Of a DNA stretch of 64,000 nt, positions 2,555-42,499 are shown one piece after another. This stretch comes from Oscillospiraceae bacterium (GTDB taxonomy: Bacteria; Bacillota; Clostridia; Oscillospirales; CAG-272). Within the stretch, counting starts at the first letter, position 1; every line of letters begins with the position of its first letter. The translations under genes and the position numbers were made by a program. The stretch is taken from positions 362 through 64,361 of the forward strand of contig SVRM01000005.1 in the NCBI GenBank assembly GCA_015064785.1, read 5' to 3'. The notes beneath the pieces are model-generated. The model searched no databases and was not told the origin of the DNA. It worked only from the letters and a program-made list of their open reading frames with translations.

Positions 2555-2583
2555 ATTATATCACAGCTTCCATCATCTGTCAA
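2555..2583 (-). promoter_or_regulatory. Candidate sigma-A promoter of the SBP gene
   Basis: On the minus strand: TTGACA (2583-2578), a 17-nt spacer, then TATAAT (2560-2555). It lies about 35 nt upstream of the start codon. Confidence 0.6.
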
Positions 2584-2639: not shown

Positions 2640-2861
2640 TAGGCAATTGCAAAATTGCCTACCTTCATCGCCCAAAGGGCGATATATAAACAAATTGCGT
2701 CGCTTGGGCGGGTTTCCCGCCCAAAAAGACTCCTTCAAAGCGACCAAAGGGATGCCACCCGAAGAAATGCTGTGCATTTCTTCAGAAGTTGCTGTGCAAC
2801 TTCGCGGTCTTTGCGTCAGACCGAGGAAACCGATTGCAAAATGCAATTTTGCAATCGATTA
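2640..2861 (+). mobile_element. MITE-like hairpin-module repeat, copy A (about 222 nt)
   Basis: It shares a 113-nt 5' block (one mismatch by eye) and a roughly 35-nt 3' block with the inverted copy at 36704-36875. It is flanked by a perfect 12-nt direct repeat, ACTGATAAAAAA (2628-2639 and 2862-2873). The 13-nt core ATTGCAAAATTGC occurs near both ends in inverted orientation. The body is a chain of perfect hairpins (AGGCAATT-GCAA-AATTGCCT, ATCGCCC-AAA-GGGCGAT, TTGGGCGGG-TTT-CCCGCCCAA, CGATTGCAAAAT-GCA-ATTTTGCAATCG). No coding capacity. Confidence 0.7.
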
Positions 2862-19578: not shown

Positions 19579-20133
19579 TCAGATTTCCATGATTTCCTTG
19601 GTCTTGGCTTCCGTGACCTTGTCAAGCTGCTTGACGTACTTGTCGGTCAGATCCTGGACTTCCTTTTCGGAGGCCTTCTGTTCGTCCTCGGTCATCGTGC
19701 CGGCCTTCTTCAGCTCCTTGCACTTGTCGTTTGCATCGCGGCGGATGTTGCGCAGTGCAACCTTGGCAGCTTCACCCTTCTTGGAGATGTCCTTTGCCAG
19801 TTCCTTTCTGCGTTCCTCAGTCAGCGGCGGGAAGGACAGGCGGAGCATAGAGCCGTCGTTCTGCGGATTGATGCCGAGATCGGATGCCTGAATTGCCTTT
19901 TCGATTGCCTTGAGCGTGGTCTTATCCCACGGGGTGATGGTGATGGTTCTTGCGTCCGGAACGGAGACCTGCGCAACAGCGGTGATCTGTGTGGGAGAGC
20001 CGTAGTAATCGACGGTGATCTTATCGAGGACACCGGGGTTTGCGCGTCCAGCACGGATTGACTTCAGTTCGTTTTCATATGCATCAATGCTCTTCTGCAT
20101 CTTTCTTTCATAATCTTTGACATCCAGTTTCAT
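19579..20133 (-). CDS. frr: Ribosome recycling factor
   Basis: 184 aa, canonical RRF (MKLDVKDYERKMQKSIDAYENELKSIRAGRANPGVLD...). RBS GGAGGTAT. Confidence 0.95.
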   Translation of the reverse strand: MKLDVKDYERKMQKSIDAYENELKSIRAGRANPGVLDKITVDYYGSPTQITAVAQVSVPDARTITITPWDKTTLKAIEKAIQASDLGINPQNDGSMLRLSFPPLTEERRKELAKDISKKGEAAKVALRNIRRDANDKCKELKKAGTMTEDEQKASEKEVQDLTDKYVKQLDKVTEAKTKEIMEI

Positions 20134-20278
20134 AACGGAAATACCTCCACAAATTAAAATTTCACATCCGGATGCCGACGTTCGTGCGCATCCGTGATTC
20201 TACCATATATTTTACTATGAAATCCTTGATTTGTAAACAGATTTCTGTAAATTTTTTCGGAATTTTCAAAAGATTTCA

Positions 20279-20312
20279 GAAAAAACACATCCCGCACACG
20301 CGGTACGGGATG
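20279..20312 (-). terminator. Intrinsic terminator of lipoprotein gene A
   Basis: On the minus strand a CATCCCG...CGGGATG hairpin is followed by TGTTTTTTC. It begins about 10 nt after the stop at 20322. It is duplicated at 23114-23148. Confidence 0.6.
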
Positions 20313-20321
20313 ATTTTCGGG

Positions 20322-22685
20322 TTATTGACGCTCTGCCAAACAGAGACTGACGCGGGACTGGATGATTTTCTGGGTTTCTTCCAGAGTGCGTACACCGCCG
20401 AGATAGGAATCGAGTTCTTCTGACAAAATCTCCATGACTGTCGTTTCCGCATAGGTCTGCATCGGTGTATTGAAAAACAGGGTTCGCAGCTGTTCTGTCA
20501 CATCCGGCACAAACGCATAACAGGTATAATACGGCTCTCCCCACACATTTCTGCCGCTCATGTATGTTTCCAGCTTCGGATCATCCGGCGCAAACGACCG
20601 TTCATAAGCGCGGCTCAGAATCACGGTTTCCGCACCGTTTGAGACAATGCTCGACGTATGATACGTATCCTCATTGACAAACAAATGCTGTGTTTTTCCA
20701 AGCTCCTGTTCCATCGCCTGCATCGTCGGCGGCAGACCGGTATTCTCCAGAGCCGCACTGTTCTGAATCAGATCGGACAGCAAAAACCGCAGATATTCCA
20801 TAGACCCGCGCTGAACGGGTGACGATGCGGAAATCATCAAATCCATATTCATCGAAGATAAATAACCGATCGATGTACCGTCAGACGGATAACCGCAGAA
20901 TGAAATGTCAATTCCGTCCAGTTCACGCAGTGCCGCTGCCATGGAAGCCATTCCGTCCAGCGGCAGGCACAGATACCGCAGCCGCCCCGATGTCAGATTT
21001 TCCGTAAGTTTTTCCGAGGTAATGCCGATACCGCCGATGCCCGACGGTGCAAAATAGCCCAGATCCGTATCATTGACCGAGGAAAGCGCTGCATAAAACG
21101 CAAGAAATTCACCGAACAGCGCACTGTCAAAACTGCATGTTCCGGCATCGTCGTCAATGAACGCTTCCACCGCACATTCCAACAGCATCCGCTCCTGATT
21201 GGGCTTCATCGAAAACAAAGCATCCCCCTCTGCAAGCGATTCTGCTTCCTCCAACAGCCGCTCCAATGTCAGCGCAGAACCGTCTGCATCCGGTGCGGCA
21301 GTCACCAGCGTATCGACCGAAATACGGAGGGGAATTGCATATAGTCCCGCATCCGCCGTTTCAAAAGCACTTTGCACACAGGGCAGAAGCTGATCTTTGA
21401 AATACGGCGACAAGTCAAGATATCCCTGTTTGCGGGAAATATCGCGGATTTCTTTCGCAAACGCATCACGGACAATCATGACATCCGGTGCGTTTCCGGA
21501 AAGTACATCCTCGCGGTAGGCCTGTATCTCCTCATCGCGCGTCAGATCAGTCTGATCTTCAGCGTAATTATGAACCGTTACATGGTATTCCGCATTCGTG
21601 CGGTTGAACAGTGCCGCACTGTTAGAAACGACATCCGCAAATCCACCGATCAGACCGACACGAATCTCCAGTTTTCCAGAATCCGACGGCGCTTTTTTCA
21701 GTATGGCAAGATCTCTTTTTTCAATAAACGGATCCGTCACCCATGCAAGGTATGTTTCCTCATCGAAAACATGAATCACATCCGTGTTTTCTGCTGATAA
21801 GAATGCATCGCCGTGCGCCATCAGAAGCACCGCTGTATCCGATGCCGCATCATATCCCCAGACACCGTCCCCGTCATGATAATACCGATCGTATCCGGGA
21901 CCGTATAAAATCGAATGGGACCGATCAATTCCCGACACCGCCGATAACGAAGCGTCATGAACCAGCTTCCCCCGTTCGGTGTCATAGACATGGTGTATCC
22001 CGCCCTGCGTCGCAAAATCAAACAATGTCACAACGACAGGGGAACCGGGCACCGCATGAAACCGCTGTACCCATCCGCCGATGGAATCGGCTGCCAGAAC
22101 CGTCAGATCGGAATCCAGATGATAAAACCATCCGCCGACCTGTACCGCAAAGCTGCCATCCTCCAATACCTGCACCGCACAGTCGATATTATCCGCGTTT
22201 TCGAGGCTGACCTCCGATTGGATCGTTCCGGTTTCATCCGACAAACGCACAACGGTCATCCCATCCTCCAAACTTGGCGAAAACAGCAGAAACGAACCGT
22301 TCGGCAGCAAATAAGACAGCGATGCCTGTACCGGAGCCGGATGAACCACCGTTTTGATATGCGCACCTGTGCGGTCATATATCCATGTTTCATCCCGCTT
22401 CGTTTCGGGATTGCTGTACTGAAAATGAATCTCATCTCCGAACACATGAACATACGGATGCAGATATGCAGTATCCATCATCAGATAATGATCCGCAGGT
22501 ATCGAGAGAAAAGAAAGCTCAAACCTGTTTTCGGAGCAGTAATACCGTTCTGCACCGGCGGTGTCCACCAATACCGCACGATCAGACGACAAGGCATCCG
22601 TATCATGCGTCAAATCATTCTCTCCGTGTGTACAGCCGTTCAAAAACAGAATCACAAGCACAAGTACAAAAAGATATTTCCTCAT
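20322..22685 (-). CDS. Large lipoprotein A: divergent beta-rich N-terminal half plus SBP-like C-terminal half
   Basis: 787 aa. Signal peptide plus Cys (VLVILFLNGCTHG). The C-terminal half has patches reminiscent of solute-binding proteins (NAPDVMIV, LDLSPYFKDQLLPCV, LYAIPL, CGYPSDG). It is a paralog of the ORF at 23179-25677, with a shared C-terminus KIIQSRVSLCLAERQ. It has its own RBS (GAGGAAG), promoter and terminator. Confidence 0.8.
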   Translation of the reverse strand: MRKYLFVLVLVILFLNGCTHGENDLTHDTDALSSDRAVLVDTAGAERYYCSENRFELSFLSIPADHYLMMDTAYLHPYVHVFGDEIHFQYSNPETKRDETWIYDRTGAHIKTVVHPAPVQASLSYLLPNGSFLLFSPSLEDGMTVVRLSDETGTIQSEVSLENADNIDCAVQVLEDGSFAVQVGGWFYHLDSDLTVLAADSIGGWVQRFHAVPGSPVVVTLFDFATQGGIHHVYDTERGKLVHDASLSAVSGIDRSHSILYGPGYDRYYHDGDGVWGYDAASDTAVLLMAHGDAFLSAENTDVIHVFDEETYLAWVTDPFIEKRDLAILKKAPSDSGKLEIRVGLIGGFADVVSNSAALFNRTNAEYHVTVHNYAEDQTDLTRDEEIQAYREDVLSGNAPDVMIVRDAFAKEIRDISRKQGYLDLSPYFKDQLLPCVQSAFETADAGLYAIPLRISVDTLVTAAPDADGSALTLERLLEEAESLAEGDALFSMKPNQERMLLECAVEAFIDDDAGTCSFDSALFGEFLAFYAALSSVNDTDLGYFAPSGIGGIGITSEKLTENLTSGRLRYLCLPLDGMASMAAALRELDGIDISFCGYPSDGTSIGYLSSMNMDLMISASSPVQRGSMEYLRFLLSDLIQNSAALENTGLPPTMQAMEQELGKTQHLFVNEDTYHTSSIVSNGAETVILSRAYERSFAPDDPKLETYMSGRNVWGEPYYTCYAFVPDVTEQLRTLFFNTPMQTYAETTVMEILSEELDSYLGGVRTLEETQKIIQSRVSLCLAERQ

Positions 22686-22729
22686 TTTTTCTTCCTCAGT
22701 TAAGATATTATGCTGTTATTTCTGTTATC

Positions 22730-22758
22730 ATTATATCATATTACCATTTTCACGTCAA
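22730..22758 (-). promoter_or_regulatory. Candidate sigma-A promoter of lipoprotein gene A
   Basis: On the minus strand: TTGACG (22758-22753), a 17-nt spacer, then TATAAT (22735-22730). Confidence 0.6.
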
Positions 22759-22829
22759 CAAATGACAAGCCGCTTATTTTTTTCTCCTGTTTGCACAAAT
22801 CAAACATACCGATTTTGTGAAATGAGCAC

Positions 22830-22863
22830 AAAAAAACGGCACAGCTGTTACACTGTGCCGTTT
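22830..22863 (-). terminator. Duplicated copy of the tsf intrinsic terminator
   Basis: Identical to 25824-25857: a CGGCACAG...CTGTGCCG stem followed by a T run on the minus strand. Confidence 0.6.
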
Positions 22864-22877
22864 CTGTAATACAAGAA

Positions 22878-22970
22878 TTACTTGTTGTTGACCATCTTTT
22901 CGATTTCAGCAGCAAAGTCTTCTTCTCTCTTCTGCATCTTTCTTTCATAATCTTTGACATCCAGTTTCAT
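22878..22970 (-). pseudogene. Chimeric frr'-'tsf remnant (30 codons) marking a duplication junction
   Basis: MKLDVKDYERKMQK is the first 14 codons of frr, carrying the frr RBS and promoter copy. It is fused in frame to REEDFAAEIEKMVNNK*, the last 16 codons of tsf. The junction lies in the 10-nt sequence CTCTTCTGCA (22927-22936), which is present in both parents (20090-20099 and 25921-25930). Confidence 0.8.
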
Positions 22971-23152
22971 AACGGAAATACCTCCACAAAATAAAATTTC
23001 ACATCCGGATACCGCAATCGTCCGTGTCCGGGATTCTACTATATTTTTTACTATGAAATCCTTGATTTGTAAACAGATTTCTGTAAATTTTTTGGGAATT
23101 TTCAAAAGAATCCGAAAAAACACATCCCGCACACGCGGTACGGGATGATTTT
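22927..23152. repeat. Duplicate of the frr 5' end, frr promoter/leader and lipoprotein terminator (original at 20090-20316)
   Basis: By-eye alignment shows mostly identical sequence. Differences cluster in the leader hairpin (20169-20194 vs 23004-23033), with a few substitutions elsewhere. Confidence 0.85.
23114..23148 (-). terminator. Intrinsic terminator of lipoprotein gene B
   Basis: Same CATCCCG...CGGGATG hairpin plus T run as at 20279-20312. Confidence 0.6.
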
Positions 23153-23178
23153 TGTGTGGTTGGTGGGGTCTGCATACT

Positions 23179-25677
23179 TTACTGTCTCTCTGCAAGATAG
23201 ATACTGACGCGGGACTGGATGATTTTTGTGACCTCGGTAAGCGACTTCACGCCATTCTGCCAATAGGACAGCTCCTCGGTAACAATCGCTTCCACAGTAT
23301 CGTCGCTGCCCGCTGACATATGGCAGTGATCGAGGAAGTACAGGAATGCATCGATATCCGCCTGCGGCAGTGCAACGCAGTATCCGGTCGGATCGCCGTT
23401 TTCGTCAAGCTCAAATGTCAGCGGCTCATCGGAAATGATCTCTGCCGACAGCGGTACAATCGGCGGGGTCGTGTCAAACGAAAGCGATGTCTCCCGCATC
23501 GGTGCGGCGGAGTTTCCGATATTGTGATATCGGTCTGCCGAATACGAATAATACCGGTTCTTTTCAAACAGCAGCCGGATGGCGTCCCGTGTGACAGGCA
23601 GATTCTGATGGGTATCCTCGGTCTGCCGCTCTGCATCCAGCAAAAATTGCAGAAATGCGATACTGCCCTCCGGCGCATCCGTATCGGCAAGCACTGCCGT
23701 ATAACCGAGAAGATTGACATACGCACCGCCGCCGTGATCCGACGGATAGCCGCACCAGACAAAATCCGTATCGCCGTACAGATGCCGCGCCATCATAACC
23801 TGCTCCGGCGAGTTTATCCACATATTCAAATAGGTCAGTCCGCCCTCACGCAGCCGTGCGGGAAGCGTCGGATTCGTATATCCACCGGTTCCGTCGGAAT
23901 GGGTTGTCAGATAACCGACGGTCTGATCGAGATAGGTTTCCGAAAGCTCGTCCAACAGCTCCATGACGGAACGGAATTTGTCACTGTCGTAGTCCGCCAT
24001 CCCTGCCACTGGGTCAAAGAAGTCCATGATGCCGTTGGCATACAGATACTGCTCTGCGCGCGGGTCGGAATACAGCACTTCCTTTCCGTCAAGAGACCTG
24101 ACACTGTCGATGAAGACATCCCATGTCAGAAAGTCCTCTGTTACCTCCGGCAGACAGAGAAACGTATAAATCTGCATATTCATCGGCACAGAATACAGCG
24201 CATCCCCCCATCTGACCGCATCCGTGACACAGCCGAGCATCTGATCGCCGATATACGGTGTCAGATCGAGAAAGGCATTTTTGTCATAATAGTCATCCAG
24301 CGTCACACGCGGGTCGATCATCAGCACATCCGGACGCGCTTGGTTCACCATACGGTCGGCAAGCAGCGCCTCTCGCTCCTGCTGTCCCATATTGACTACA
24401 TCAACATAATTGAGGTTGATCTCGTATTCCTCACTCTCACGGTTGAACGCAAGCACGGCGTCTCTGACCCAGTCGTTCACACCGTAATAGTCAAAGTCGA
24501 TGACCTGCTTGGGGTTTTCGTCGGGAACCATTTCGGTATGGATATAGTACAGTTTGGTATCGGTATAACGGTAATTTTCAATCCTTGATTTCGTGATATA
24601 AAAACTATGTTCATCTATCACCCATAAATTCCGATAATATAAATCTGCCGTTATGCCGCACTCCATCCAATCTGCCACTTTGGACGGCGGAAGATTATCC
24701 CGATACACGTACATACCAAGCATATCATACAAATAGAGATTTCCCTGTGTATCGGCAATCAGATTCATATGATCCTTGTCATCGGGCACACGGAACTTTT
24801 TATCTTCATAAATTCCGGTCTTCATATTCAGGATCGAACATTCCCCGACACTCCCGACAGGAAGCCATTTCATGTTACCGATATAGTCCATGAAAGATAA
24901 ATGCTTATTTCGATTGGTTAACTTCTGATATACTACCCGTCCGGCTTCCAGTGTCTGTGTTTCCCTGTGAAACAATACACTGAAAAAGCATGTTGATTCA
25001 CCACGATGCAGCAGAACAACATCTCCATCTTCGATTTCGCTTATCTTGAAATCACCGTGTGTCCAAAATTCAGGATAAACCTCGTCAAGACAGATTTCGG
25101 CACGAGGAGTACCGTCAGGCTCCGATATACCGAAATAGTACAGTGTATCTCCATCTTTTCGCTCACACCAGATCAGCGCAAAACATCCGTCAGACAGTAT
25201 ATACGCATATTCCGGCAATGCACCGCGAACCGACGGCACAGGAAGCTCCTCCATTCTCACACCATCTGCGTATGAATACAAAGATCTCTTATAACCGTTC
25301 TCCGTTTTCTGCTGCCCGTAAATAAATAATTTTCCATCTTTGACATATGTATTTGTGTAGTTTAATTCATAATCGCCGGAATACAATCCGGCAATCATTA
25401 CGATATCATCGGGCAAATCAGTTGTGATATCCACTACGGTATGCTTCAGTGTATATGGAACAAAGGATGGCACGGTTTCTGTGCTTTCCTCCGTCGCTTC
25501 CATTTCCGACAATTCTGTCATATCCGATGCATCTACCGTGTCAGCGGAATATTCTGTGACCGTTTGCTGTGTTATCACCGGTATCTTTGGCTGTTCTCCG
25601 GAACAGGAAGAAAGCAGCATACCGCACAGAATCAGCAAAATTACAACCAATCTTTCATAAACAGCATGACGCTTCAT
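23179..25677 (-). CDS. Large lipoprotein B: divergent beta-rich N-terminal half plus SBP-like C-terminal half
   Basis: The ATG at 25677 has a strong RBS (AGGAGGGAAGAGGG); the track start is at 25698. The 832-aa product has a signal peptide and lipobox (LILCGMLLSSCSG). The C-terminal half is alignable to lipoprotein A (ARPDVLMI, LDLTPYIGDQMLGCV, LYSVPM, CGYPSDHG, KIIQSRVSIYLAERQ). The N-terminal half aligns poorly. Confidence 0.8.
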   Translation of the reverse strand: MKRHAVYERLVVILLILCGMLLSSCSGEQPKIPVITQQTVTEYSADTVDASDMTELSEMEATEESTETVPSFVPYTLKHTVVDITTDLPDDIVMIAGLYSGDYELNYTNTYVKDGKLFIYGQQKTENGYKRSLYSYADGVRMEELPVPSVRGALPEYAYILSDGCFALIWCERKDGDTLYYFGISEPDGTPRAEICLDEVYPEFWTHGDFKISEIEDGDVVLLHRGESTCFFSVLFHRETQTLEAGRVVYQKLTNRNKHLSFMDYIGNMKWLPVGSVGECSILNMKTGIYEDKKFRVPDDKDHMNLIADTQGNLYLYDMLGMYVYRDNLPPSKVADWMECGITADLYYRNLWVIDEHSFYITKSRIENYRYTDTKLYYIHTEMVPDENPKQVIDFDYYGVNDWVRDAVLAFNRESEEYEINLNYVDVVNMGQQEREALLADRMVNQARPDVLMIDPRVTLDDYYDKNAFLDLTPYIGDQMLGCVTDAVRWGDALYSVPMNMQIYTFLCLPEVTEDFLTWDVFIDSVRSLDGKEVLYSDPRAEQYLYANGIMDFFDPVAGMADYDSDKFRSVMELLDELSETYLDQTVGYLTTHSDGTGGYTNPTLPARLREGGLTYLNMWINSPEQVMMARHLYGDTDFVWCGYPSDHGGGAYVNLLGYTAVLADTDAPEGSIAFLQFLLDAERQTEDTHQNLPVTRDAIRLLFEKNRYYSYSADRYHNIGNSAAPMRETSLSFDTTPPIVPLSAEIISDEPLTFELDENGDPTGYCVALPQADIDAFLYFLDHCHMSAGSDDTVEAIVTEELSYWQNGVKSLTEVTKIIQSRVSIYLAERQ

Positions 25678-25723
25678 CCCTCTTCCCTCCTGTTGCAAAT
25701 TATCTGTGGATTATCCTGTTACC

Positions 25724-25752
25724 ATTATATCATAATTCCGTCATCACGTCAA
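25724..25752 (-). promoter_or_regulatory. Candidate sigma-A promoter of lipoprotein gene B
   Basis: On the minus strand: TTGACG (25752-25747), a 17-nt spacer, then TATAAT (25729-25724). Confidence 0.6.
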
Positions 25753-25823
25753 CAAATGACAAGCCGCTTATTTTTTTCTTCTGTTTGCACAAATCAAACA
25801 TACCGATTTTGTGAAATGAGCAC

Positions 25824-25857
25824 AAAAAAACGGCACAGCTGTTACACTGTGCCGTTT
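25824..25857 (-). terminator. Intrinsic terminator of tsf
   Basis: On the minus strand a CGGCACAG...CTGTGCCG hairpin is flanked by AAA/TTT and followed by a run of seven T. It lies 15 nt after the tsf stop. Confidence 0.7.
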
Positions 25858-25871
25858 CTGTAATACAAGAA

Positions 25872-26804
25872 TTACTTGTTGTTGACCATCTTTTCGATTT
25901 CAGCAGCAAAGTCTTCTTCTCTCTTCTGCAGGCCTTCGCCCTTTTCATAGCGGAAGAAGTTTGCAACCTTGATGGAGCCGCCGAATGCCTTGCCGGAATC
26001 TGCGAGATACTTTGCAACGGATTCCTTGTTTTCAGCCTTGACATATTCCTGTTCGAGCAGGCAGTTTGCTTCGTAGAACTTGCCGAGACGACCGACAACG
26101 ATCTTTTCGAGAACCTGCTGCGGCTTCTTTGCGTTTGCAGGATCGTTTGCAAGCTGTGCGAGCAGGACAGACTTTTCTTCTTCGATAACGGAAGCGGGAA
26201 CGTCCTCACGTGCAATGTACGGAACTGCAGCCTGTGCAGCAACGTGCAGAGCGATGTTCTTCTTGACTTCTGCGTAGCCTTCGTTTGCAGCTGCAGCTTC
26301 GTCAGATTCGAACTTGACAATGACACCGATGGAGCCTTTGCCGTGGATATAGGAAACGAGGTCGCCTTCGATGATATCGAAGCGGCGGATGGACATATTT
26401 TCACCGATGGTGAAGATCATCTGCTTGAGCTGTGCTTCAACATTGGTTTCACCTTCATAGGTGCAAGCGAGAAGTGCTGCAACGTCAGCGGGCTTTTCGG
26501 TGATGATGATGTGGAGCAGCTGTGCAACGAATGCCTTGAAGGTATCGTTCTTTGCAACGAAGTCGGTTTCGGAGTTGACTTCGATGATGGCACCGACACC
26601 GTTTTCGATTGCGATGTCAACCAGACCTTCAGCGGCGATTCTGTCTGCCTTCTTTGCAGCGACAGCAATGCCTCTTTCACGAAGGATCTTGATTGCGTCG
26701 TCCATGTTGCCGTTTGCTTCTACGAGTGCGTTCTTGCACTCCATCATGCCGCAGCCTGTCTTCTTGCGAAGCTCAGCTACGTCCTTTGCAGAAATGTTAG
26801 CCAT
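25872..26804 (-). CDS. tsf: Translation elongation factor Ts
   Basis: 310 aa. The N-terminal UBA-like motif (AKDVAELRKKTGCGMMECKNALVEANGNMDDAIKILRERG) is canonical EF-Ts. Confidence 0.96.
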   Translation of the reverse strand: MANISAKDVAELRKKTGCGMMECKNALVEANGNMDDAIKILRERGIAVAAKKADRIAAEGLVDIAIENGVGAIIEVNSETDFVAKNDTFKAFVAQLLHIIITEKPADVAALLACTYEGETNVEAQLKQMIFTIGENMSIRRFDIIEGDLVSYIHGKGSIGVIVKFESDEAAAANEGYAEVKKNIALHVAAQAAVPYIAREDVPASVIEEEKSVLLAQLANDPANAKKPQQVLEKIVVGRLGKFYEANCLLEQEYVKAENKESVAKYLADSGKAFGGSIKVANFFRYEKGEGLQKREEDFAAEIEKMVNNK

Positions 26805-36667: not shown

Positions 36668-36703
36668 ATACCGACAACGCCTCCTTCCTGATTTTCTTTA
36701 TTT

Positions 36704-36875
36704 AATCGATTGCAAAATTGCATTTTGCAATCGGTTTCATCGGGCTGACGCAGCCCGATGGCTCCCTTTGGTCGCTTTGAAGGTGTCTTTTTGGGCGGGA
36801 AACCCGCCCAAGCGACGCAATTTGTTTATATATCGCCCTTTGGGCGATGAAGGTAGGCAATTTTGCAATTGCCTA
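36704..36875 (-). mobile_element. MITE-like hairpin-module repeat, copy B (about 172 nt), inverted relative to copy A
   Basis: It has the same 113-nt and roughly 35-nt terminal blocks as 2640-2861. It is flanked by a perfect 14-nt direct repeat, GATTTTCTTTATTT (36690-36703 and 36876-36889). The central module is replaced by a single hairpin (CATCGGGCTG-CGT-CAGCCCGATG). Confidence 0.7.
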
Positions 36876-36883
36876 GATTTTCT

Positions 36884-38539
36884 TTATTTCCCGGCAGACC
36901 GCCGCGGCAGAAGTCCGATCCAGTCCGCAGTATGAACGCCGTATGCATCAGCAGCATCACAGCACAGATATGCCATGGACAGAGGACCGATTCCCTGACC
37001 GTCCGTCTGTCCGCCGCCAGACGGCTGCTCCAGCGCCATTGCCTTCAGCGCCGTTGTCTGCGGCAGAAGATACTGCTCCTTCTCCGAAATTTCCGCATGG
37101 CACGGATACAGCTCCAGATGGGAAATGATGCCGCCGCCCGCCTTCAAAACCATTGCGCGCCGGATCTCACCGGTCTCGTCCAGCAGCGGAATCCCGCGGT
37201 AGGTGTATCCGTAGGTCAGCACAAGAGTCTCCTCCTCCGCGTCCGAAGCCATGCGCACATCGAGCAGTGAACAGACCAGCGCGTCACCGCCGAATGCGGA
37301 TTCTTCGGTTTCCAGAAGAGACAGCAAGCGGTCGGACGCACGCAGATATTCCGACAGCAGATAATCGCCGCCGATGCTGGCATATCCGAGATATTCCGCC
37401 AGATCAAGACCGCCCTCCTGCAATGCGTCATAGTAAAATGCACTGGCTGTTCCCGATACCGTCAGACGACCGGACGCATTCAGATAGATTCTGGTTCCGC
37501 TGCCGTCTGTATAATAGCTGTCCTTGTCGCGTTCCCGCATTCCGAGCAGTCCCAGCACGGCAGACAGCGTTTCCGCATCTCCGTACAATGCCGCCGCGGG
37601 ATCATACGGTGTCAGCATAATCTGCGGCATCCGATAGATGCCGTCAAGCGATGCCGCCGTTGCAGTCCCATACGGTATCAGTGTCCCTGTCTGTGCATCC
37701 GAGGTCAGCGTTTCCATGGAATCCAGATACAGATCCAGTACGCCGGTTTTCTCCTCTGCCATCTCCTGCGCATCGGTGCTGAACAGTGCAATTCCGGCGC
37801 TGTCATCCAGTCCCGTGTCTTCCGTCAGTTCCTCCGCCGGTGCCGAACTCCCCGGCATTTGTGCGGTCCCCGACATACAGTACAGCGTAACCGCACCACC
37901 GTCATCGCAGGTCAGCGCACAGACAGCATCGGTGTCATTCGACAGCGCCATCGGAAGCACGTCTGCCCACGGCCGCAGCGATTGCAGCGGGATCAGATAC
38001 AGCTCATGCAGATAAGAGGCTTCCCCGCCGGTACGTTCATCCAGAACCGCCGCCGTGGTTTCGCTGTCCTCCGCAGAATAGGTGTAAGCGCGGATCACCG
38101 ACACCGGCAGCGCTCCGTGATACCGGATATAGATACAGTCCTCCATCTGTGCACATGCCGCAAGCAGCTCGCCCCCGACCGCCGCATCCGCCGCATAGCC
38201 GACCGCACGCGAACCAAACAGATCACGCAGCAGCGGATACAGCCTCTCATACGGCTTGCCGAGTGCATCGGACGCATACAGAATCCGGAATGCACCGCCG
38301 CCGCGCCGGTATGCCAGCAGCTGCGGAGCGACACGCGCGGTATCCATTCCGGCAGCAAACATCGGCTGTGCACCGGAGGCATAGACCACCATACGGTCCG
38401 CCAGCGGCAGAGCTTCTTCCCTTGTGCCGTTCTGACCGATCATCAGAAGAACCAGCAGAACCAGCATAACCACAATCAGAATAAAAATCATCAGAGATTT
38501 GACCGCTTCCGCGGGAGAAAACACAGAATGCTGCTTCAT
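36884..38539 (-). CDS. yycH: YycH-like regulatory protein of the WalRK system
   Basis: 551 aa with a single N-terminal TM helix (LMIFILIVVMLVLLVLLMI) and a large extracytoplasmic domain. Its start overlaps the walK stop by 4 nt (ATGA), as in Bacillus walK-yycH. The call rests on position and topology. Confidence 0.55.
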   Translation of the reverse strand: MKQHSVFSPAEAVKSLMIFILIVVMLVLLVLLMIGQNGTREEALPLADRMVVYASGAQPMFAAGMDTARVAPQLLAYRRGGGAFRILYASDALGKPYERLYPLLRDLFGSRAVGYAADAAVGGELLAACAQMEDCIYIRYHGALPVSVIRAYTYSAEDSETTAAVLDERTGGEASYLHELYLIPLQSLRPWADVLPMALSNDTDAVCALTCDDGGAVTLYCMSGTAQMPGSSAPAEELTEDTGLDDSAGIALFSTDAQEMAEEKTGVLDLYLDSMETLTSDAQTGTLIPYGTATAASLDGIYRMPQIMLTPYDPAAALYGDAETLSAVLGLLGMRERDKDSYYTDGSGTRIYLNASGRLTVSGTASAFYYDALQEGGLDLAEYLGYASIGGDYLLSEYLRASDRLLSLLETEESAFGGDALVCSLLDVRMASDAEEETLVLTYGYTYRGIPLLDETGEIRRAMVLKAGGGIISHLELYPCHAEISEKEQYLLPQTTALKAMALEQPSGGGQTDGQGIGPLSMAYLCCDAADAYGVHTADWIGLLPRRSAGK

Positions 38540-40425
38540 GCTGTCGGTTCCTCCTCCTGCGCCGCCTCATCGGCAAGCGGTGAGCGGATGGGCAGAATGA
38601 CCGTCAGCTCCGTGCCGCGGCCGAGCACACTGTTCAGCTTGATTTTGCCGCCGTGCGCTTCCACCAGCTCTTTGGCAATGGCAAGTCCCAGACCGGTACC
38701 GCCGGCACCGGTTGTTCTCGATTTTTCAACGCGGTAGAAACGCTCAAACAGATGCGGCTGATCTTCTTTGGGAATGCCGATACCGTTGTCGCGCACGCTG
38801 ATTGCCACATGCGAGCGGTTTGCCGCCGCACGCAGCAGGATCTGACCGCCGTCAGGAGTATATTTGACCGCATTTGTCAGAATATTCAGAAGCACCTGCT
38901 CCACGCGGTCCTTATCCGCCGTAATCTGCGGCAGATTGTCATCCAGCCGCACAGACAGTGTATGCCGATGCTCGGCAATATCGTTTTTTACAACCTCGCA
39001 CATGTGACGGATCACCGCCTCGACCGAGAAGGTCGAAATTTCCCACTTGGTGCGGTTGTTGTCCAGGCGCGACAGCACCAGAAGGTCGCCGACAATGCGC
39101 GTCATCCGGTCGGATTCCTCCACCGCCATCGACAGAAAGCTCTCCCGCATGTCCGACGGCATATCGGGATACCGCAGAACCGTTTCCGCCGCACCCTTGA
39201 TGGAGGTCAGCGGTGTGCGCAGCTCATGCGAGACATTGGCGACAAATTCCCGTCTGCTGCGGTCCAGCTCGTACCGACCGGTGACATCGTGGATGACCGC
39301 AATGACGCCAGTGTGGTTTTCGTTGTTTTCCATATAACGGAAATTGCCCAGAGACACGTCAAACACGCGCTCACGCAGTGCAATCTCCCGCAGGACATAG
39401 CCTTCATCCCCTGTCTCCGAATCGCGCTCCAGCGCCGCACGGAAAATGGGATTGTCCTCGATGCCGCACAGCCGCAGAAGCCATGCCAGCGTCATTGTCT
39501 GCGCCTCTTCCGCATCGCCCTGCTCCGTGAGGACAGCGCCTTCCATCAGCGGCACAAACAGATCGCGCGCAGTGGTATTCTGGTGCATGACCGAGCCGTC
39601 GTCACGGAACGCAACCACGGCATCCTTGAGGTAAAAGAAGACCGTTTCGAGCTTTTTCTGCTCACCGGAAACCTGATCGATGGTGTTCTTGAGAACCGAT
39701 TTCATATGGTTGAACGTATCGGTCAGCGTACCGATTTCATCGCGGGAATGCACGTCGATTTCCTGCTCGAATTCACCTGCCGCAATCTGCTGTGCGCCGC
39801 GCGTCAGGCTCTGAATCGGTGCGGTGATGGTCTTCGCAAGGAAAAAGGACAGCAGAATCGCAAACAGCGATCCGAACAGCAATGCCTGCAAAATGATGGA
39901 GAATAGCATCCAGTTCAGATCCTGCATCTCCTCCTTGCTATCACGCACATAGACCAGATACGACTCCGTTTCCGACGCAATGCGGATACAGAAGTCCAGA
40001 CTGTCAGCACCGGCCCGCTGTTCCGAACCGCTGCCGCCGTTCATGACAGACAGGATATTCGGCGTCAGATAGACCGTCTCTCCGATATGGAACATGGAGG
40101 ATGTATCGGAGGCTGCAAGCACTGCACCGTTTTCGTCCAGAATGGCAGCGGAACGGTTGGCATCCAGTCCGAGATGACCGGAATACGCATCCAGCATGAT
40201 GACCATCGCCGCCGCACCGTCACCGCGGCCGACAACCTCCTCCAGATAGTCGTAAAGCTCCGCGCCGGGCACAAAGCTCTCCTCCATCTGTTTGCGGAAA
40301 TCCTCTGCAAAATAGGAGGAAACACCGTTGAGCAGAATTGTACCGACAACGGCCATAATGGTTGCGATAAAGATAATCAGAATCAGAATGATTTTGAAAT
40401 ACAGACTCCGGTACAATACACGCAC
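38536..40425 (-). CDS. walK: Sensor histidine kinase WalK-like
   Basis: 629 aa. Two TM helices flank an extracellular domain, followed by HAMP, PAS, an H-box (SHELRTPLTSIKG) and N/G boxes. GTG start with RBS AGGAGAGGA. Confidence 0.85.
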   Translation of the reverse strand: MRVLYRSLYFKIILILIIFIATIMAVVGTILLNGVSSYFAEDFRKQMEESFVPGAELYDYLEEVVGRGDGAAAMVIMLDAYSGHLGLDANRSAAILDENGAVLAASDTSSMFHIGETVYLTPNILSVMNGGSGSEQRAGADSLDFCIRIASETESYLVYVRDSKEEMQDLNWMLFSIILQALLFGSLFAILLSFFLAKTITAPIQSLTRGAQQIAAGEFEQEIDVHSRDEIGTLTDTFNHMKSVLKNTIDQVSGEQKKLETVFFYLKDAVVAFRDDGSVMHQNTTARDLFVPLMEGAVLTEQGDAEEAQTMTLAWLLRLCGIEDNPIFRAALERDSETGDEGYVLREIALRERVFDVSLGNFRYMENNENHTGVIAVIHDVTGRYELDRSRREFVANVSHELRTPLTSIKGAAETVLRYPDMPSDMRESFLSMAVEESDRMTRIVGDLLVLSRLDNNRTKWEISTFSVEAVIRHMCEVVKNDIAEHRHTLSVRLDDNLPQITADKDRVEQVLLNILTNAVKYTPDGGQILLRAAANRSHVAISVRDNGIGIPKEDQPHLFERFYRVEKSRTTGAGGTGLGLAIAKELVEAHGGKIKLNSVLGRGTELTVILPIRSPLADEAAQEEEPTA

Positions 40426-40456: not shown

Positions 40457-41158
40457 TTATGCCAGATAATAGCCGTAGCCGTGCTTGGAAAAAATATATT
40501 CGGGATGCGTCGGATCCGTTTCGATCTTGTTGCGCAGACGGCTGACCGTGACATCAACCGTGCGGCGATCCCCGAAAAACTCCTTATATCCCCAGACCGA
40601 TTCGAGCAGCTCCTCCCGCTTGAAGGGCTTTCCCTGATTCGCCGCAAGGAACGCCAGCAGATCATATTCAATCTTGGACAGCGCAATCGGCTCCCCGGCC
40701 TTTGTCACGCTGTATTTTTCGTTGTCAATCACAAGCTCGCGGACCTCCAGGACCGTGCTTGCTTTCGCTTCCGTCACGACCTCGTTTGCACTGCGCCGCA
40801 GATTTGCCTTGATGCGGGCGAGCAGAACATTGACGGAAAAAGGCTTTGTGACATAGTCGTCCGCCCCGAGGTCCAGACCGAGAATTTTATCGACATCCTC
40901 TTCCTTTGCCGTCACCATAATGATCGGTGTATCCAGCCGCATCCGTATGCCGCGGCAGACTGTGAAGCCGTCCATTTTGGGCAGCATGATATCCAGAAGG
41001 ATCAGATCAAAATTGCCGCGGAGTGCCTTTTTCAGCCCTTCCTCTCCGTCGGAAGCAATCTCATAGTCATACCCTGCCTGCATCAGATTGAACGCAAGTA
41101 CCTGTGCAATGTTCTTCTCATCTTCTACAATCAGTATTTTTTTCTTGCTGTCATTCAT
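40457..41158 (-). CDS. walR: OmpR-family response regulator WalR-like
   Basis: KILIVEDEKNIAQVLAFNL...DLILLDIMLPKMDGFTVCRGIR...PIIMVTAKEEDVDKILGLDLGADDYVTKPFSVNVLLARIKANLRR is closely similar to Bacillus WalR as I recall it. The ATG at 41158 is preferred; ATG at 41170 or 41191 is possible. Confidence 0.85.
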   Translation of the reverse strand: MNDSKKKILIVEDEKNIAQVLAFNLMQAGYDYEIASDGEEGLKKALRGNFDLILLDIMLPKMDGFTVCRGIRMRLDTPIIMVTAKEEDVDKILGLDLGADDYVTKPFSVNVLLARIKANLRRSANEVVTEAKASTVLEVRELVIDNEKYSVTKAGEPIALSKIEYDLLAFLAANQGKPFKREELLESVWGYKEFFGDRRTVDVTVSRLRNKIETDPTHPEYIFSKHGYGYYLA

Positions 41159-41212
41159 ATCAATCACCATGGCTTTCCGTTTGCAAGTCATTCATTCGTT
41201 GAAAATTGGGTT

Positions 41213-42499
41213 TTACGGAAACACAACCGGCACGGTTGCTTCCGTGATGATCTGCGATACCACACCGGCATCACTCAGCCGCTGAAGCAGAACAGGCAGA
41301 ACCTGCGCCGCCGTGTCCGTACAGTGCATCCGGATCACCGGATAATAGCTGGTCAGCAGCGCCGCATCGATTTTGGCAAGCACCGCGTCGGCGTGATAGG
41401 ACAAATCATGATCCATTGCAGAAATATTCCAGTCCCACAAGACATAGCCGTGCTGTGCCAGCGTCTCCTTCTGCTGCTCCGACAAATACAGCCTTCCGGA
41501 ATGCGATCCCTCCGGCAGACGCACCAGACGGGTTTTCCGCCGTACCAGCGCATACAGCAGTTCATTTTCTTCCTCGAGCGCGGCAAGGAGATCCGCGGTG
41601 TCCCGCAGCGCATACTCGTCCGCGGTCATCCCGTGCAGACCGAGCGTATGCCCTTCTGCCAGAATGCGGAGAACCGTATCGGTATACTGCGTCAGCTGTT
41701 CCCCGGTGACAAAGAACACCGCATGTGCACCAAAGGTACGCAGCGTATCCAAAAGCACCGGCGTATGGGTATCCTCAATATCCTCAAACGTCAGATAAAC
41801 GGAGGATGCGCGATAGATGTCCGGTTCACGGACAGGCGGCTCCGTCACAGGCGGCTCTGTGACAGGCGGCTCCGTCACAGGCGGTTCTGTCACGACAGGT
41901 CCCGTCACAGGCGGCTCCGTCACCGGGATCGTCTGCACCGTCGTCTCCGGCTCCGTTTCTGTCACAGGCGGCGGCATATACACCGACAGAAGCTCCTCAA
42001 AGGTCTTCTTCTGCCCGCCGTCGCAGATACGGACCGTATTAAAATCCGCCGAAATTTCAAAGGTCCAGCCGAAATACGCACACATGTCACGCATCGGCAG
42101 ATACCGTTCTCTGGAGTACAGCATGGTATGGAGGAGAATCAGCGTACTGCGTTCCGTCTGTGCATAGGTGCTGTCATTTAAGTTGAAGGACAGGTACTTT
42201 TCCGTCACCGTGTCCTGAATGATAAAAACCGTATTGTTTTTTGCGGTACCGCGCCGGACACGCATCCCTTCGATGTCCTCATAGAAGGACAGCGGGATCC
42301 AGAAGTCCTTCATCGCACCGATGGTATAGCCCAGTGCCGGATAATAGTCATCCATGACCCACACCGTATCGTTATAGAACAGGGTCGGTACCTCCGGCTT
42401 CACCGCAAGCACCCGCGGCATGATCGCCGAACCGATCACAAGAACTGCGGCAGCCAGCCAGAGCGCCGCAAAGGAAATCCACTGTTTACATCTGCTCAC
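41213..42499 (-). CDS. Polysaccharide deacetylase (NodB-domain) protein with N-terminal anchor and a repeat linker
   Basis: 428 aa. TM anchor, an unknown domain, a (TEPPV)n linker, then NodB-like motifs (LTFEDI, GHTLGLHG). The GTG start overlaps the upstream stop (GTGA). Confidence 0.8.
   Translation of the reverse strand: MSRCKQWISFAALWLAAAVLVIGSAIMPRVLAVKPEVPTLFYNDTVWVMDDYYPALGYTIGAMKDFWIPLSFYEDIEGMRVRRGTAKNNTVFIIQDTVTEKYLSFNLNDSTYAQTERSTLILLHTMLYSRERYLPMRDMCAYFGWTFEISADFNTVRICDGGQKKTFEELLSVYMPPPVTETEPETTVQTIPVTEPPVTGPVVTEPPVTEPPVTEPPVTEPPVREPDIYRASSVYLTFEDIEDTHTPVLLDTLRTFGAHAVFFVTGEQLTQYTDTVLRILAEGHTLGLHGMTADEYALRDTADLLAALEEENELLYALVRRKTRLVRLPEGSHSGRLYLSEQQKETLAQHGYVLWDWNISAMDHDLSYHADAVLAKIDAALLTSYYPVIRMHCTDTAAQVLPVLLQRLSDAGVVSQIITEATVPVVFP
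41822..41926. repeat. In-frame 15-bp tandem repeat, about 7 units, encoding (TEPPV)n
   Basis: GGCGGCTCCGTCACA-type units are visible directly in the sequence. They translate on the minus strand to TEPPVTGPVVTEPPVTEPPVTEPPVTEPPV. Confidence 0.85.

Follow-up and report, generated by a model that had tools for sequence, protein, structure and literature searches.

A recent insertion of a miniature transposon-like element between the YycH-like and YycI-like genes of a WalRK-like operon in an Oscillospiraceae bacterium

The stretch of DNA analyzed here, 64,000 nt of contig SVRM01000005.1 from the assembly of an uncultured gut Oscillospiraceae bacterium, GCA_015064785.1 (positions 362 to 64,361) and hereafter called the window, carries a WalRK-like operon on its minus strand. 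Genes for a response regulator and a histidine kinase are followed by two genes labeled YycH-like and YycI-like, which are separated by a noncoding, hairpin-rich element (copy B); a longer copy of the same element (copy A) lies elsewhere in the window. Comparison with closely related DNA reveals that copy B arrived by a recent insertion, for which the species is still polymorphic. Judged by its sequence, the element is an undescribed nonautonomous transposon of the type known as MITE (for miniature inverted-repeat transposable element). The coordinates of the features are collected in Table 1.

The insertion is documented by an empty site in L139, an 18-kb Logan contig (SRR29277967) that spans both genes and that was found via a cluster mate of the 551-aa YycH-like protein (544 of 551 residues identical). 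Over 7.6 kb, L139 and the window have 99.1 to 99.2% nucleotide identity, and L139 lacks exactly the element and one copy of the direct repeat that flanks it. The L139 junction reads GCCGGG-AAATAAAGAAAATC-AGGAAGGAGG...ATG, with a single copy of the repeat, and the spacer from stop codon to ATG is 30 nt long, compared with 216 nt in the window. At the junction, the occupied and empty alleles do not differ in either coding sequence or in the ribosome-binding site. An earlier interpretation of the window made without database searches (the sequence-only reading) had described a perfect direct repeat around copy B with the yycH stop codon inside it, at coordinates that our own reading of the sequence confirms, and had reconstructed the preinsertion sequence as GGGAAATAAAGAAAATCAGGAAGGAGG, which is found verbatim in L139. 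The empty site that it foresaw therefore exists, although the distance from the yycH stop codon to the yycI start is 30 nt in L139 and not the approximately 27 nt that had been estimated.

Five more distant orthologous junctions (84%, 66 to 68%, and lower amino acid identity) have 38- to 43-nt spacers and are likewise element-free. The site is empty in a 99%-identical strain, the relatives lack the element, and the insertion is a recent one. The same comparisons bear on the idea of an ancestral cis-regulatory RNA that has been conserved in the WalRK-like operon, as the strong and specific structure of the sequence might suggest. However, neither the 99%-identical strain nor any of the five more distant orthologous junctions examined has the sequence, near-identical copies occur at unrelated loci, and there is no Rfam match. 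The sequence-only reading had likewise preferred an insertion and had asked whether all relatives carry the sequence; they do not. An ancestral RNA is already refuted by the empty sites, and we give it practically no credence.

The occupied allele is present in four independent assemblies and in four of the five sampled populations. An identical 551-aa protein is encoded on contigs from JGI 3300029705, ENA ERZ27248446, and Logan SRR7032240, which end within the element at the same junction. Interruption of short-read contigs inside the element is common, a pattern that would also be expected if a repeat had been misjoined into the contig during assembly. However, both junctions, with the correct flanks and the duplication, were recovered independently in the JGI, ENA, and Logan assemblies, and copy A is fully spanned in the ENA sample L172. 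An assembly artifact is thus extremely improbable.

On the operon (minus) strand, copy B reads TAGGCAATTGC...GCAATCGATTA. The perfect repeat GATTTTCTTTATTT flanks it at 36690-36703 and 36876-36889 and has no third site in the 64-kb window even when one mismatch is allowed (approximately 0.03 chance matches expected). The 14th base of this repeat (T at 36703) is ambiguous, so the duplication at copy B is 13 or 14 nt long. Since a T precedes every copy, the element most likely starts with T-AATCG, and the unit is most likely T-AATCGATTGCAAAATTGC ... GCAATTTTGCAATTGCCTA, with a length of 173 nt and a 13-nt duplication. Its termini are TTTTGCAATCGATTA and GCAATTTTGCAATTGCCTA, and its 19-nt terminal inverted repeats are imperfect (TAATCGATTGCAAAATTGC and TAGGCAATTGCAAAATTGC agree at 16 of 19 positions) and invariant in all copies. 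The end that terminates in ...GCAATCGATT(A) faces the downstream start codon in copy B as in copy A, in agreement with the sequence-only reading. The short form of the element folds into a chain of five self-contained hairpins, the long form into one of seven. Relative to shuffled controls, the occupied junction is highly structured on the two strands (z = -6.5 and z = -6.3), whereas the empty-allele junction is not (z = +0.65).

Coding capacity is nil, the only frame being one of 12 to 37 codons without a usable ribosome-binding site. This short frame, which is present on the operon strand in both forms (window positions 36703-36745, minus strand; copy A, 2765-2861), ends in GCA ATC GAT TAA. 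It spans 12 codons in the short form but 37 in the long one, and its stop codon is completed by the first flanking base. It is probably fortuitous. An effect of this small terminal open reading frame (ORF) (ATG AAA CCG ... GAT TAA) via translational coupling was considered and rejected, as it has no ribosome-binding site, its start codon lies in a hairpin, and its stop codon needs the first flanking base.

Table 1. Features of the WalRK-like operon and of the two element copies, in window coordinates
Feature	Position	Strand	Remarks
Copy A, long form, 222 nt	2640..2861	+	Left end at 2861, toward the ribosome-binding site and ATG (2890) of a spore germination gene of the GerA family
YycI-like gene, 348 aa	35621..36667	-	N-terminal transmembrane helix; starts 36 nt past the element end; no sequence-family match
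Native ribosome-binding site of the YycI-like gene, AGGAAGGAGG	36680..36689	-	GGAG begins 5 nt past the duplication end
Target-site duplication, ribosome-binding-site-proximal copy, GATTTTCTTTATT	36690..36702		Single occurrence in the empty allele L139
Copy B, short form, 173 nt	36703..36875	-	Between the YycH-like and YycI-like genes; five separate hairpins, no ORF
Left terminal inverted repeat, TAATCGATTGCAAAATTGC	36703..36721	+	Faces the YycI-like ribosome-binding site; invariant in 15/15 copies
Terminal hairpin H5	36704..36736		15-bp AT-rich stem; takes in the left inverted repeat
Hairpin H4, CATCGGGCTGACGCAGCCCGATG	36737..36761		Region holds two extra hairpins in the long form
Hairpin H3, TTGGGCGGGAAACCCGCCCAA	36791..36811		GC-rich; no downstream U-tract on either strand
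Hairpin H2, ATCGCCCTTTGGGCGAT	36832..36848		One of the five hairpins of copy B
Terminal hairpin H1 and T-rich duplication	36854..36885	+	Sole terminator-like site of the region; antisense to the operon
Right terminal inverted repeat, TAGGCAATTGCAAAATTGC (minus-strand reading)	36857..36875	-	Matches the left terminus at 16 of 19 positions
Target-site duplication, distal copy	36876..36888		Includes the YycH-like TAA stop (36886-36884, minus strand)
YycH-like gene, 551 aa	36884..38539	-	TAA at 36886-36884; no sequence-family match
WalK-like histidine kinase	38536..40425	-	HAMP, HisKA, and HATPase_c domains; best NCBIfam match HK_WalK, 402 bits (cutoff, 725)
WalR/YycF-like response regulator	40457..41191	-	NCBIfam resp_reg_YycF, 286 bits (cutoff, 340)

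Copy A is inserted in the opposite orientation and is 96 to 98% identical to copy B, save for an extra 49-nt module with two hairpins. It is flanked by 12-nt duplications (TTTTTTATCAGT) at 2628-2639 and 2862-2873, and the same insertion is present in L172. No empty allele came to light for copy A: the site is occupied in L172, and there is no record of the upstream protein. Copy A is located between divergent genes, and a perfect TTGACA-17-TATAAT promoter of the minus-strand gene lies just outside it (window positions 2555-2583). Given the position of copy A, the promoter of the GerA-family gene must be located upstream at a distance of more than 220 nt from the ribosome-binding site, and the 5' untranslated region (5' UTR) should hold the whole element.

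A scan of genome contigs for the left end returned 13 further copies, all in the metagenome-assembled genome (MAG) Clostridia bacterium RGIG3925 from roe-deer caecum and many of them at contig ends. The family thus comprises at least 15 copies in two MAGs (2 in the window and 13 in RGIG3925), which are 98 to 100% identical and come in short (173 nt) and long (222 nt) forms. Seven distinct AT-rich target-site duplications were recognized, of 13, 12, 11 to 12, 11, 12, 9, and 11 nt (overall range, 9 to 14 nt); for one of them, the contigs L005 and L014 represent the two sides of a single insertion with an 11-nt duplication. No synteny between the roe-deer MAG loci and the window was detected when these were inspected for additional pairs of empty and occupied sites. 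The short-read contigs of this lineage (L001, L003, L005, L008 to L011, and L014 to L018) very often start or stop inside the element, which makes the MITE a systematic cause of MAG fragmentation in this Oscillospiraceae lineage.

Beyond these two MAGs, the exact 22-nt left end had no match among metagenome contigs, the exact termini had none among viral contigs (where a degenerate terminus gave chance matches only), and blastn searches of plasmids and phages returned no match to the element. A scan of metagenome contigs for the two inverted-repeat cores at a distance of 120 to 150 nt yielded 31 units of approximately 155 to 176 nt (L140 to L170), bounded by the 13-nt core ATTGCAAAATTGC ... 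GCAATTTTGCAAT. They fall into at least three groups without internal similarity to the window element, and one group adjoins Bacteroidales-like 'tttgcaaagatac' flanks. These units were rejected as family members and not used, since only a core of 13 to 16 nt is common to them and the element; they could be hairpin repeats with no relation to it, or else MITEs from related insertion sequences with a common terminal core.

The assignment to the MITE type is based on the terminal inverted repeats, the variable target-site duplications, the lack of coding capacity, the many near-identical dispersed copies, and the precise empty site. At 173 or 222 nt, the noncoding element is also well within the size of approximately 500 bp below which MITEs fall. 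It has no sequence similarity to the Rfam, plasmid, phage, or viral collections; with Rfam 15, there was no match at the gathering score in the whole window, and the best subthreshold match in the local region had an E value of 0.97 (searched up to E = 1). Neither a transposase gene nor a full-length element nor additional termini were found in the window or the fetched loci, and the genome and metagenome scans were not aimed at a full-length insertion sequence. That the parent transposase was not found in the sequences examined counts against the proposed transposition, as the element would have to be mobilized in trans. A casposon-like origin and a TA-targeting (IS630) origin were both rejected, as the duplication length varies and there is no TA at the empty site.

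The sequence-only reading had further proposed that the element could attenuate or uncouple the expression of yycI, but nothing in the sequence supports this. By consensus scan of the region, the operon strand has no terminator-like or promoter-like site. Direct reading of the five hairpins on the minus strand revealed none with a 3' U-tract, and so none has the form of an intrinsic terminator or attenuator. Furthermore, the native 13 nt ahead of the ribosome-binding site are reinstated by the duplication, and the stop codon of the upstream gene is preserved. An outward hybrid promoter built on the TTGCAA in the left terminus was also considered and rejected, since its -10 element would land on the ribosome-binding site and no -10 element is conserved.

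Predictions of ribosome-binding-site accessibility disagree. When the junction is folded with 80 nt of the upstream gene, the GGAAGG of the ribosome-binding site is predicted to pair with a CCUUC of the element (p = 0.61), and the unpaired probability of GGAGG drops from 0.43 to 0.08; this prediction speaks against a neutral insertion. In constructs of element plus flank from eight sites, however, the mean accessibility of the ribosome-binding site is the same with and without the element (0.52 versus 0.52), and it is 0.49 with an inverted element and 0.48 with shuffled ones. The pairing of one element CCUUC with the downstream ribosome-binding site occurs in the whole-transcript fold and not in the shorter constructs. 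On the basis of these models, an effect on translation is possible. Between 36770 and 36860, the operon strand contains a pair of CCUUC motifs (UACCUUCAUCG and CACCUUCAAAG) that resemble the anti-Shine-Dalgarno sequence and a single motif (AAAGGGAG) that resembles the Shine-Dalgarno sequence.

Taken to its conclusion, the proposal of attenuation would make the hairpin array an attenuator, terminator, or processing site that lowers the expression of the YycI-like protein or uncouples it from WalK and YycH. It draws on the increase in intercistronic distance from 30 to 216 nt, on the pronounced structure of the occupied junction RNA (z = -6.5, versus z = +0.65 for the empty one), and on the one global fold in which the element CCUUC sequesters the ribosome-binding site. 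Against this stand the missing U-tracts and terminators on the operon strand, the restored 13 nt, and the unchanged accessibility in the eight-site constructs, as well as the occurrence of the allele in four independent samples and the tolerance of the same placement upstream of at least eight other genes. We therefore consider attenuation unlikely. As far as can be judged from the DNA, the operon is most likely still read through as one transcript, with little change in YycI-like expression, and the insertion of copy B is probably close to neutral.

What distinguishes the family is its placement. Flanks were read outward from the TAATCG end, and an insertion was scored as ribosome-binding-site placed if positions +13 to +18 held GGAG or AGGA and a start codon with an ORF of 100 codons or more came after it. 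Eight of the 13 visible left flanks qualify (window copies A and B, L007, L009, L011, L012, L013, and L015), with start codons at +26 to +36 and ORFs of 110 to 593 codons. The same geometry recurs for the L005/L014 insertion, but at the opposite end, so that this insertion is in reverse orientation. The total is thus at least 9 of 13 insertions, and 8 of these 9 are in one orientation, with the TAATCG end toward the gene. By the same measure, only 0.7% of all positions in the window and 1.2% of the AT-rich ones qualify, which gives binomial P values of approximately 1e-14 and 7e-13, respectively. For the insertions with a known duplication, the distance from the ribosome-binding-site-proximal end of the duplication to GGAG is 5, 5, 6, 5, 5, and 6 nt, while the duplications themselves vary in length between 9 and 13 nt. 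On the upstream side, the context differs among insertions (a stop codon at copy B, a 5' UTR between divergent genes at copy A, possibly a terminator at L006), and on the downstream side it is constant.

These observations are best accommodated by target choice anchored on the ribosome-binding-site motif, with selection after insertion as the main rival. Target choice is favored because the copies are very young and the spacing is precise to 1 nt. Selection would instead act on random insertions into AT-rich DNA, of which only the harmless or beneficial copies persist, for example as a 5' stem-loop stabilizer or an RNase processing site for the downstream cistron. All of the duplications are indeed AT-rich in a genome with 54% G+C, AT-rich intergenic stretches cluster just upstream of ribosome-binding sites, and an orientation-dependent RNA effect could produce the 8-to-1 orientation bias. 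However, a constant spacing of 5 to 6 nt from duplication to GGAG despite duplications of 9 to 13 nt fits a molecular ruler better than it fits a survival filter, and the reverse-oriented copy has the same spacing. In addition, copies that are 98 to 100% identical have had little time for purifying selection, and the association persists against the AT-rich background (P of approximately 7e-13). We regard selection as a rather doubtful explanation of the pattern.

Several points also tell against target choice: L006, L008, and L010 show no ribosome-binding site on the visible left flank (their right flanks were not seen), and the claim draws on only 13 insertions from two MAGs. L004 is ambiguous. 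With these in mind, we tentatively suggest that the element and its parent insertion sequence could belong to a family whose integration measures from the Shine-Dalgarno sequence and prefers one orientation, such that one strand-transfer joint would fall 5 to 6 nt upstream of (A)AGGAG and the second a further 9 to 13 bp upstream; we hold this to be a real prospect, if not quite an even one. Such a transposon would home to the last bases of 5' UTRs and intercistronic spacers, which are safe sites in that the stop codon, the ribosome-binding site, and the start codon are spared.

For copy B, a mechanism can be outlined on this basis. A transposase acting in trans, supplied by an insertion sequence, would make staggered cuts 9 to 13 bp apart, one of them set relative to the ribosome-binding-site motif and the other placed more loosely. 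Gap repair would then duplicate the AT-rich stretch, and the duplication would rebuild the native sequence in front of the ribosome-binding site while the upstream stop codon was kept. The hairpins of the element would fold on themselves, with no terminator or promoter facing the gene. With the native sequence rebuilt, the hairpins self-folding, and no such signal toward the gene, the operon would most likely be read through as one transcript. Overall, we are confident, short of certainty, that copy B represents a recent nonautonomous MITE-type insertion into the 30-nt spacer that separated the YycH-like gene from the YycI-like gene and that it is probably near neutral.

The extra 186 bp in the WalRK-like operon are therefore the result of a recent mobile-element insertion and not a regulatory RNA, which is clarifying rather than dramatic. 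They also provide a natural pair of occupied and empty alleles at 99% identity that could be used to measure any effect on YycI-like expression. The insertion itself is ordinary, and what is potentially new is the targeting behavior, as for a MITE so tight an association with the few bases that precede ribosome-binding sites is uncommon. Should target choice be the cause, it would constitute a new mode of safe-site selection for bacterial transposons and possibly a useful natural means of delivering cargo to positions ahead of genes. Should selection be the cause, the insertions would show which positions in compact operons tolerate 170 to 220 nt of structured RNA.

The identity of the host genes calls for comment. 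The kinase and the regulator are WalRK-like by sequence, with scores below the NCBIfam equivalog thresholds. The 551-aa and 348-aa proteins have no Pfam or NCBIfam match even at E values of up to 10, and a profile search of the PDB sequences returned nothing meaningful; homologues of both proteins are confined to a narrow clade of "hypothetical proteins." AlphaFold models were built from alignments of these homologues (predicted local distance difference test [pLDDT] scores of 75.9 for the 551-aa protein and 87.5 for the 348-aa protein) and compared by Foldseek. The 551-aa model matches the WalK-YycH model 9a5d_B (E = 1e-11) and YycH 2fgt (E = 1.5e-9), and the 348-aa model matches YycI 2o3o (E = 3e-6), ranked after an uncharacterized Eubacterium protein (5coz); the template modeling (TM) scores of the YycH and YycI fold matches are modest, at 0.3 to 0.57. 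Both models start with a long helix, and the gene order of kinase, 551-aa gene, 348-aa gene, and aroA is kept in relatives. The yycH and yycI names given in the sequence-only reading thus find support in the fold matches to the Bacillus subtilis proteins, which rank at or near the top, and in the position of the genes after the WalK/YycF-like pair, but not in any Pfam or NCBIfam match. On the strength of these models and the gene context, the labels "YycH-like" and "YycI-like" appear reasonable.

Two other sets of repeats were observed in the window. Just upstream of the WalR-like gene, approximately nine tandem 15-nt units (ACAGGCGGCTCCGTC and variants) occupy positions 41817-41951. In L001 and L139, these units lie inside a gene that is called as encoding a polysaccharide deacetylase of 428 aa and that has a weak Extensin-like match, and they are probably a repetitive linker. 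At 20090-20369, 22722-23226, and 25716-25930, segments of 48 to 215 nt recur every 2.84 to 2.99 kb (approximate spacing) with 81 to 98% identity. Two large ORFs in tandem on the minus strand (787 and 839 aa) are flanked by these segments, which looks like an array of tandem paralogues with conserved intergenic regions.

Among known systems, members of the IS4 and IS231 subgroups listed in ISfinder generate long, variable target duplications of approximately 10 to 13 bp (family range, approximately 8 to 13 bp). The 9- to 14-nt duplications of the element fit this range, which makes the IS4 family and its miniature derivatives, such as MIC231 of Bacillus cereus, a natural comparison, although neither a DDE transposase (which in the IS4 family has a YREK motif) nor a matching full-length insertion sequence was found with the element. 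To our knowledge, targeting relative to ribosome-binding sites is not a described property of IS4 or IS231. A keyword search of the literature likewise found no precedent for a MITE or insertion sequence that targets ribosome-binding sites, which as negative evidence is weak.

REP sequences are single palindromes of approximately 35 nt that are linked to RAYT transposases and produce no target duplication. Like the element, REP and BIME sequences are hairpin-forming intergenic repeats that occur between cistrons, where they can affect mRNA stability. The element differs from them as a defined unit of 173 or 222 nt with terminal inverted repeats and duplications. MIRU, in turn, are tandem direct repeats of 40 to 100 bp that contain small overlapping ORFs, have an orientation relative to transcription, and have neither terminal inverted repeats nor target duplications. 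According to a title cited in PMC3184786, MIRU, which lie in intercistronic spacers, were initially found in an operon for a two-component system. Both MIRU and the element thus reside inside operons, whereas the element is a single unit with terminal inverted repeats and duplications. The Chunjie MITE of Geobacter uraniireducens is likewise found inside operons, to go by the title under which PMC3184786 cites it; its host phylum and sequence differ, and Chunjie is not known to target ribosome-binding sites.

Bacterial MITEs in general are small, noncoding, multicopy, and hairpin forming, with intergenic or intercistronic locations and frequent cotranscription (PMC3184786 and general knowledge). 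The Correia elements of Neisseria, the ERIC/IRU elements of enterobacteria, and the RUP elements of pneumococcus have terminal inverted repeats and target-site duplications in common with the element. The Correia, ERIC, and RUP families duplicate TA or other short targets. Correia elements additionally carry IHF sites and promoters (PMC3184786). In contrast to all three families, the element has a long, variable duplication of 9 to 14 nt and no detected promoter, and its placement is tied to ribosome-binding sites.

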